Source: Escherichia coli | GTDB taxonomy: Bacteria > Pseudomonadota > Gammaproteobacteria > Enterobacterales > Enterobacteriaceae | Assembly (NCBI RefSeq): GCF_003334315.1 | Contig: NZ_QOWR01000130.1 | Direction: 5' to 3' (one strand) | DNA: 648 nucleotides | In this document: positions 1 to 648 of the stretch, in pieces | How the letters are laid out: each line of letters begins with the position of its first letter | Numbering within the stretch: position 1 is the first letter of the stretch | The notes under the pieces: generated by a model | What the model was told of the DNA's origin: nothing | What the model saw: the letters and a program-made list of their open reading frames with translations, nothing else | Database searches by the model: none | Program-made: the position numbers and the translations under genes

Positions 1-438
1 AGGCCGCAGTCGGTAACCTCGCGCATACAGCCGGGCAGTGACGTCATCGTCTGCGCGGAAATGGACGAACAGTGGGGCTATGTCGGGGCTAAATCGCGCC
101 AGCGCTGGCTGTTTTACGCGTATGACAGTCTCCGGAAGACGGTTGTTGCGCACGTATTCGGTGAACGCACTATGGCGACGCTGGGGCGTCTTATGAGCCT
201 GCTGTCACCCTTTGACGTGGTGATATGGATGACGGATGGCTGGCCGCTGTATGAATCCCGCCTGAAGGGAAAGCTGCACGTAATCAGCAAGCGATATACG
301 CAGCGAATTGAGCGGCATAACCTGAATCTGAGGCAGCACCTGGCACGGCTGGGACGGAAGTCGCTGTCGTTCTCAAAATCGGTGGAGCTGCATGACAAAG
401 TCATCGGGCATTATCTGAACATAAAACACTATCAATAA
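1..438 (+). CDS. insB: IS1 transposase InsB reading frame (C-terminal part of the InsAB' frameshift-fusion transposase); 5'-partial at window edge
   Basis: Frame 1 is open from position 1 ([145 protein letters not shown]) with a TAA stop at 436..438. The ATG at 61 reported by the ORF track is an internal methionine. From established knowledge, InsB is expressed as InsAB' via a -1 frameshift at a site just upstream of this window, not from that ATG. Confidence 0.92.
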
Positions 439-453
439 GTTGGAGTCATTACC
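431..453. repeat. IS1 terminal inverted repeat (right end, IRR), ~23 bp
   Basis: The IS1 terminus GGTAATGACTCCAACTTATTGAT appears as its reverse complement at the element boundary. The exact inner limit of the IR is approximate. The insB stop codon lies inside it. Confidence 0.8.
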
Positions 454-648
454 CCAAACATCATATAATAATTGATATAAATTATACAAACCCAAAGGAT
501 CCATCCTTATTATCGGATTCAGTGGGTAATTATACAGGTTCCATCCCCCCTCCAGCCCAATGGGGTCTTGTGTAATATACCGCCCCTGCAACGGATCGTA
601 GTACCGGTGACGGTTATAGTACAGCCCTGATTCCTCATCATGCTGCTG
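454..648 (-). pseudogene. Rhs-family (YD-repeat / RHS repeat-associated core domain) protein, 3' end of core plus first 11 codons of the C-terminal variable region; interrupted by IS1, 5'-partial at window edge
   Basis: Minus-strand translation from 648, with no stops: [65 protein letters not shown]. This contains the hallmark Rhs core terminus ([10 protein letters not shown]...GRYI(T/S)QDPIGL...NLYxYxxNP....DPxGL), with [10 protein letters not shown] encoded at 487..516. The frame runs directly into IS1 sequence at 453. GC-rich core-like codon usage at 541..648 gives way to very AT-rich sequence at 454..~500, as expected at a core/toxin boundary. Confidence 0.85.

Follow-up and report, generated by a model that had tools for sequence, protein, structure and literature searches.

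An open insB' frame at the edge of an Escherichia coli IS1/Rhs junction probably represents the C-terminal part of the frameshift transposase InsAB'

The reading frame that is open from the first base of the window (the whole 648-nucleotide stretch of Escherichia coli DNA analysed here) appears to encode the C-terminal 145 residues of the IS1 frameshift transposase InsAB' rather than a separate gene, and the start of the window is likely a technical boundary. The probability of this reading is placed at roughly 0.9. Bases 1–453 constitute the right-hand 59% of an IS1 element, and the remaining bases, 454–648, belong to an Rhs core gene, of which they hold the 3' end (minus strand). The identity of the element, the coordinates, frames and domains, the right end and the junction with Rhs were obtained from the analyses reported here; the frameshift and the absence of a separate InsB protein are taken from the literature. 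IS1 frameshift biology has been established since about 1989–1991, and what is described is textbook IS1 biology, already known and with nothing novel in it.

Window 1–453 was aligned with nt 316–768 of the IS1A element of E. coli K-12 MG1655 (NC_000913.3, 19796–20563, 768 bp), which was used as reference. All 453 positions were identical, with no mismatches, a result far beyond chance, and 452 of the 453 were also identical in the IS1A of EC09. Judged by its sequence, the IS1 portion belongs to a canonical element of the K-12 IS1A/IS1E type. The right terminal inverted repeat (IRR, window 426–453; ...AAGTTGGAGTCATTACC) ends at base 453, abutting the target DNA, and this base coincides with the end of K-12 IS1A (...GTTGGAGTCATTACC). 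The IRR is 28 bp long (PMC12903888). From base 454 onwards the window is 100% identical to uninterrupted Rhs alleles, which fixes the right end of IS1 at 453.

In frame 1 of the plus strand the first stop codon after base 1 is the TAA at 436–438, and the 145-aa translation of this frame ends ...NIKHYQ. This translation matched the complete Pfam model DDE_Tnp_IS1 (PF03400, model 1–131 of 131, E 4.3e-78) and, from profile position 82 of 199 onwards, the NCBIfam model for the IS1 family transposase (transpos_IS1, NF033558), with 138 bits against a cut-off of 100. Since the latter match starts at position 82, the frame begins mid-protein; a preliminary description of this DNA had already stated that the InsB frame is open from base 1 and starts inside the protein, and this was confirmed. 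The window protein is an exact match to residues 23–167 of Swiss-Prot INSB1_ECOLI.

No ATG, GTG or TTG was found in frame 1 within window 1–60, the first being the ATG at 61, which corresponds to IS1 nt 376 and to Met108 of InsAB'. The insB frame opens at IS1 nt 229, and from that point to window 61 start codons of these three types occur only at nt 250 and nt 376, both of them ATG. The ATG at nt 250 sits 65 nt upstream of the window, and the classical 167-aa 'InsB' (K-12 insB1, b0021; Swiss-Prot INSB1_ECOLI) begins with it. The earlier statement that insB has no independent start here is correct within the window, where none occurs in the first 60 bases, but it does not hold upstream, where the classical InsB has its ATG. 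The lack of an in-frame start in window 1–60 is consistent with expression of this segment solely as InsAB'.

In K-12 IS1A the slippery motif A6C (AAAAAAC) occupies nt 307–313 and is followed by TC, window base 1 being nt 316. In reference IS1 the motif ends two bases before window base 1 (...CGTCACTTAAAAAACTC/AGGCCGCAGTCGG..., the slash marking the start of the window), in agreement with the proposal in the preliminary description that it lies immediately upstream of this point. TTAAAAAACTC is present directly upstream of the equivalent of the window start in four full-length copies (K-12 IS1A, EC09 IS1A, STEC388 IS1A and AMSCJX03 IS1B). In CP035879.1 the same 453 nt occur unchanged in six full-length IS1 copies, each time downstream of ...CACTTAAAAAACTC and the 91-aa InsA gene. 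In every full-length IS1 examined that carries the exact 453 bases, TTAAAAAACTC and insA were located directly upstream, and the check suggested beforehand, alignment to an IS1 reference, recovered both motif and insA in the references. In the reference, insA starts at IS1 nt 56 and terminates with the TAA at nt 329–331, which falls at window 14–16 in frame 2 and is the only frame-2 stop within window 1–60. The first 60 bases of the window include the end of the insA/insB' overlap, unmentioned in the preliminary description: the 3' end of insA (1–16, plus strand) is formed by its last four sense codons, GGC CGC AGT CGG (G-R-S-R) at 2–13, and by the stop.

InsAB' was rebuilt by introducing a -1 slip at A6C. 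The resulting protein has 232 aa, ending ...LRHLKKLRPQSVTS..., and the downstream part of the transframe gene contained in the window (1–438, plus strand) provides residues 88–232, comprising the DDE catalytic domain, as supported by the IS1A identity and the PF03400 match. In NCBI RefSeq the elements of EC09, STEC388 and AMSCJX03 each carry a CDS joined from two pieces, with the note 'programmed frameshift'. According to the literature, the transposase is the 232-aa frameshift product InsAB', and insB gives no separate protein; InsA is a repressor, and transposition increases about 1,000-fold when the slip is no longer required (PMC12428005, PMC12903888). In the proposed mechanism, ribosomes translating insA would occasionally slip back one base at the A6C run (IS1 nt 307–313), bypass the insA stop at window 14–16 and continue in the insB' frame to the stop at 436–438. 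The product, InsAB', would join the zinc-finger and helix-turn-helix DNA-binding part contributed by insA to the DDE catalytic part contributed by insB'. When no slip takes place, the 91-aa repressor InsA alone would be made.

One question is whether the internal ORF that starts at Met108 of InsAB' (61–438, plus strand; 125 aa), or the classical 167-aa InsB, might be translated alone and have a function of its own. We regard this as extremely improbable. A great number of records, K-12 insB1 and Swiss-Prot INSB1_ECOLI among them, list these products as proteins in their own right; these stand-alone InsB entries, however, are gene-caller or historical annotations and not experiments, and the literature describes no demonstrated InsB protein, insB' being expressed as InsAB' only (PMC12428005, PMC12903888). 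The 125-aa product would also be devoid of the zinc finger and the HTH, on which binding to the IS1 ends depends, and the sole purine-rich stretch that precedes the ATG at 61, GCGGAA, lies directly against it, leaving hardly any spacer. From the ORF list and the InsAB' reconstruction, the 125-aa ORF is best considered a gene-caller product and probably not an independent gene.

In the gene-call collection 6,544 blocks contain the exact 125-aa product, and among the matches listed it was found in six places directly after the 91-aa InsA gene in complete IS1 copies. At least 1,000 contigs bear its sequence, and the names given to it include 'insertion element IS1 protein InsB', 'InsB', 'IS1 transposase' and 'hypothetical protein'. 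The preliminary description had warned that annotating 61–438 as a stand-alone 125-aa protein would be misleading. This warning is pertinent because the ORF is widely called alone, directly after the 91-aa insA call in full-length IS1 copies. The miscall is very common in public data, and as a matter of annotation hygiene the appropriate label for the frame at 1–438 is partial IS1 transposase (C-terminal part of InsAB', 5'-incomplete), not 125-aa protein. A 96-aa ATG ORF lies antisense to insB' (window 114–404, minus strand); it is a mechanical ORF inside IS1, without coding evidence.

The presence of an RNA structure downstream of the slip site was also analysed, a possible downstream pseudoknot having been mentioned in the literature (PMC12428005, PMC12903888). 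Folding of window 1–90 gave a minimum free energy of -29.5 kcal/mol, no better than that of shuffled sequence (z +0.57), and when the slip motif was added to these 90 bases the fold was still no better than the shuffles (z +0.27). An Rfam scan of the window provided no credible match up to E = 1; the single hit, to the C/D-box snoRNA sR33 at 600–645 on the minus strand, was rejected as a chance match (E 0.73, 16.7 bits compared with a gathering score of 37). We claim no frameshift-stimulating structure for window 1–90. Sekine and Ohtsubo (1992) are said to have found that downstream structures are non-essential and that the insA stop codon affects the efficiency.

At the other side of the junction, window 454–648 (minus strand) shows 100% identity over the 3' end of the core to numerous E. 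coli Rhs genes located close to pptA/ydcC. The translation of this flank matched positions 1208–1261 of 1261 of the NCBIfam model RHS_core (E 6.7e-31) and reached 73.6 bits with TIGR03696, whose cut-off is 32.5. The PxxxxDPxGL motif can be read in the Rhs translation, its DPLGL being encoded at 487–501, and is followed by the variable C-terminal domain. The first 11 codons of this domain end at base 454, and IS1 sits 11 codons after DPLGL, inside the variable domain. Beyond the junction the interrupted Rhs frame continues into IS1 on the minus strand (373–453) for 26 codons, up to a stop at 373–375. The insertion thus removes the C-terminal toxin domain of the Rhs protein; inactivation of the toxin domain is the more consequential local fact, although the event is of a routine kind.

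The uninterrupted target in CP53 reads ...ATCATCATG/CCAAACATCATAT, where the slash marks the insertion point. IS1 generates a direct target duplication of 9 bp (sometimes 8 bp). Bases 454–462, CCAAACATC, are the predicted right-hand copy of the 9-bp duplication, the left-hand copy lying outside the window.

The same junction base was found next to an IS1 end in one other genome. In AMSCJX03 (NZ_CP058355.1, L003 1763–2530) an IS1B element in the opposite orientation abuts Rhs at the same base (…GCATCACC/CCAAACATCAT…); among 5,426 genomes no other had an IS1 end at that position. The flanks of this IS1B show no 9-bp duplication (CAGACGCCA vs CCAAACATC), and neither the C-terminal region of Rhs nor the genes downstream are present. 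This arrangement suggests that the site may be a recurrent IS1 target and that an IS1-mediated deletion may have followed there. EC09 contains a complete IS1A (L001 2186–2953) in this Rhs locus as well, flanked by the Rhs gene and 'dsORF-e4'. Its right end, at L001 2953, is 451 bp more distant from the core than that of the IS1 in the window; the flank common to both starts at L001 3405. Since this IS1A lies elsewhere in the same Rhs locus, the locus has been hit by IS1 repeatedly. In addition, a 99-nt pseudogene annotated as 'IS1 family transposase, partial' is located downstream of Rhs in EC09 (L001 1699–1797) and in CP53 (L004 1573–1671). The EC09 copy has about 79% similarity to window 379–419, and this partial sequence looks like an old IS1-family remnant that forms a fixed part of the Rhs locus.

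Another question is whether the IS1 copy is complete upstream of the window or is a true 5'-truncated remnant, which would lack IRL, insA and A6C, encode no transposase and be immobile. The upstream bases of this copy lie outside the window. In window orientation the IS1/Rhs junction was absent from 5,426 complete E. coli genomes, both in whole-window and in junction searches, the best full-coverage E. coli matches consisting of two separate pieces or of other Rhs/IS1 pairs at 87–93% identity. The exact 39-mer spanning the junction was not found in viral, genome (species-representative) or metagenome contigs, and the plasmid and phage collections contained no IS1/Rhs junction. At the protein level there was no exact product on record for the 91-aa minus-strand partial Rhs/IS1 chimera or for the 1,295-aa chimera composed of the CP53 Rhs N-terminus and the IS1-encoded tail. 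The junction being missing from all six collections searched leaves some room for a truncated copy, as does the 99-nt 'IS1 family transposase, partial' of EC09 and CP53, which shows that IS1 fragments are known in the Rhs locus. Against truncation, the 453 nt show no mismatch to the transposition-competent K-12 IS1A/IS1E (PMC12428005) and with it no sign of decay. Contigs from unrelated drafts start at the same base, at the base before it or behind a stretch of Ns, and the flank differs from one to the next. The 145-aa product was inspected in six places and had six different flanks, a pattern typical of assembly breaks inside a repeat, and the 648-base piece is bounded by repeats (IS1 and the Rhs core), as would be expected of a short assembly contig. 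Taken with this evidence, a truncated remnant is improbable. The most likely origin of the window start is the sampling or the assembly of the sequence rather than a biological truncation, and from the identity to K-12 IS1 and the contig-break pattern we infer that the copy is probably complete upstream.

A complete copy would show IS1 nt 1–315 upstream of the window (GGTGATGCTGCC...TTAAAAAACTC). Its predicted left flank would be CCAAACATC, preceded by the rest of the Rhs C-terminal domain (...ATGAATCATCATG), and for a simple insertion with a 9-bp duplication the predicted left junction is AATCATCATGCCAAACATCGGTGATGCTGCCAACTTACT.

Many draft contigs begin within a codon or two of IS1 nt 316, just after A6C. 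In the gene-call collection the products at such edges are distributed over 41 blocks (146 aa), 177 blocks (145 aa) and 366 blocks (144 aa). The idea that nt 316 is a uniquely recurrent contig boundary was rejected, as these numbers show that contigs often start at adjacent positions too. Just before nt 316 there are three positions at which IS1A differs from IS1B, and these differences may be a cause of contig breaks there.

A stronger form of truncation would have the copy cut just after the slip site and an orphan InsB' segment expressed, from the ATG at 61 or as a fusion to a host frame, with a regulatory or dominant-negative role; in a weaker variant, the position after A6C would be a recurrent biological breakpoint. 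If true, the orphan InsB' would be an IS1 catalytic fragment deprived of the DNA-binding part. We give this proposal hardly any credence, and an assembly or sampling edge within a complete IS1 copy remains the preferred reading.

Three known systems can be compared with the window. The IS3 family (IS911, IS150; orfA–orfB) appears to share with IS1 the general arrangement in which an upstream regulatory, DNA-binding ORF is fused by a -1 slip to a catalytic DDE ORF. In the IS3 family and in IS1, -1 slippage on an A-rich heptamer keeps transposase levels low. The two differ in family and in the fold family of their transposases; IS3-family sites usually rely on a stem-loop or pseudoknot downstream, whereas window 1–90 has neither a better-than-shuffled fold nor an Rfam match. 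With K-12 IS1A/IS1E the window shares the insB' frame, the insA stop and the IRR, and its protein equals InsB1 residues 23–167. It differs from these elements in that only 453 of the 768 bp are included, IRL, the promoter, most of insA and A6C lying outside, and in that the insertion is in the Rhs C-terminal domain, which is none of the K-12 sites. Finally, the flank has the same core 3' end, DPLGL included, as many E. coli Rhs genes of the RhsD/RhsE-type locus adjoining ydcC/pptA; the intact CP53 allele runs for 134 more residues, whereas here the frame ends in a 26-residue tail encoded by IS1.
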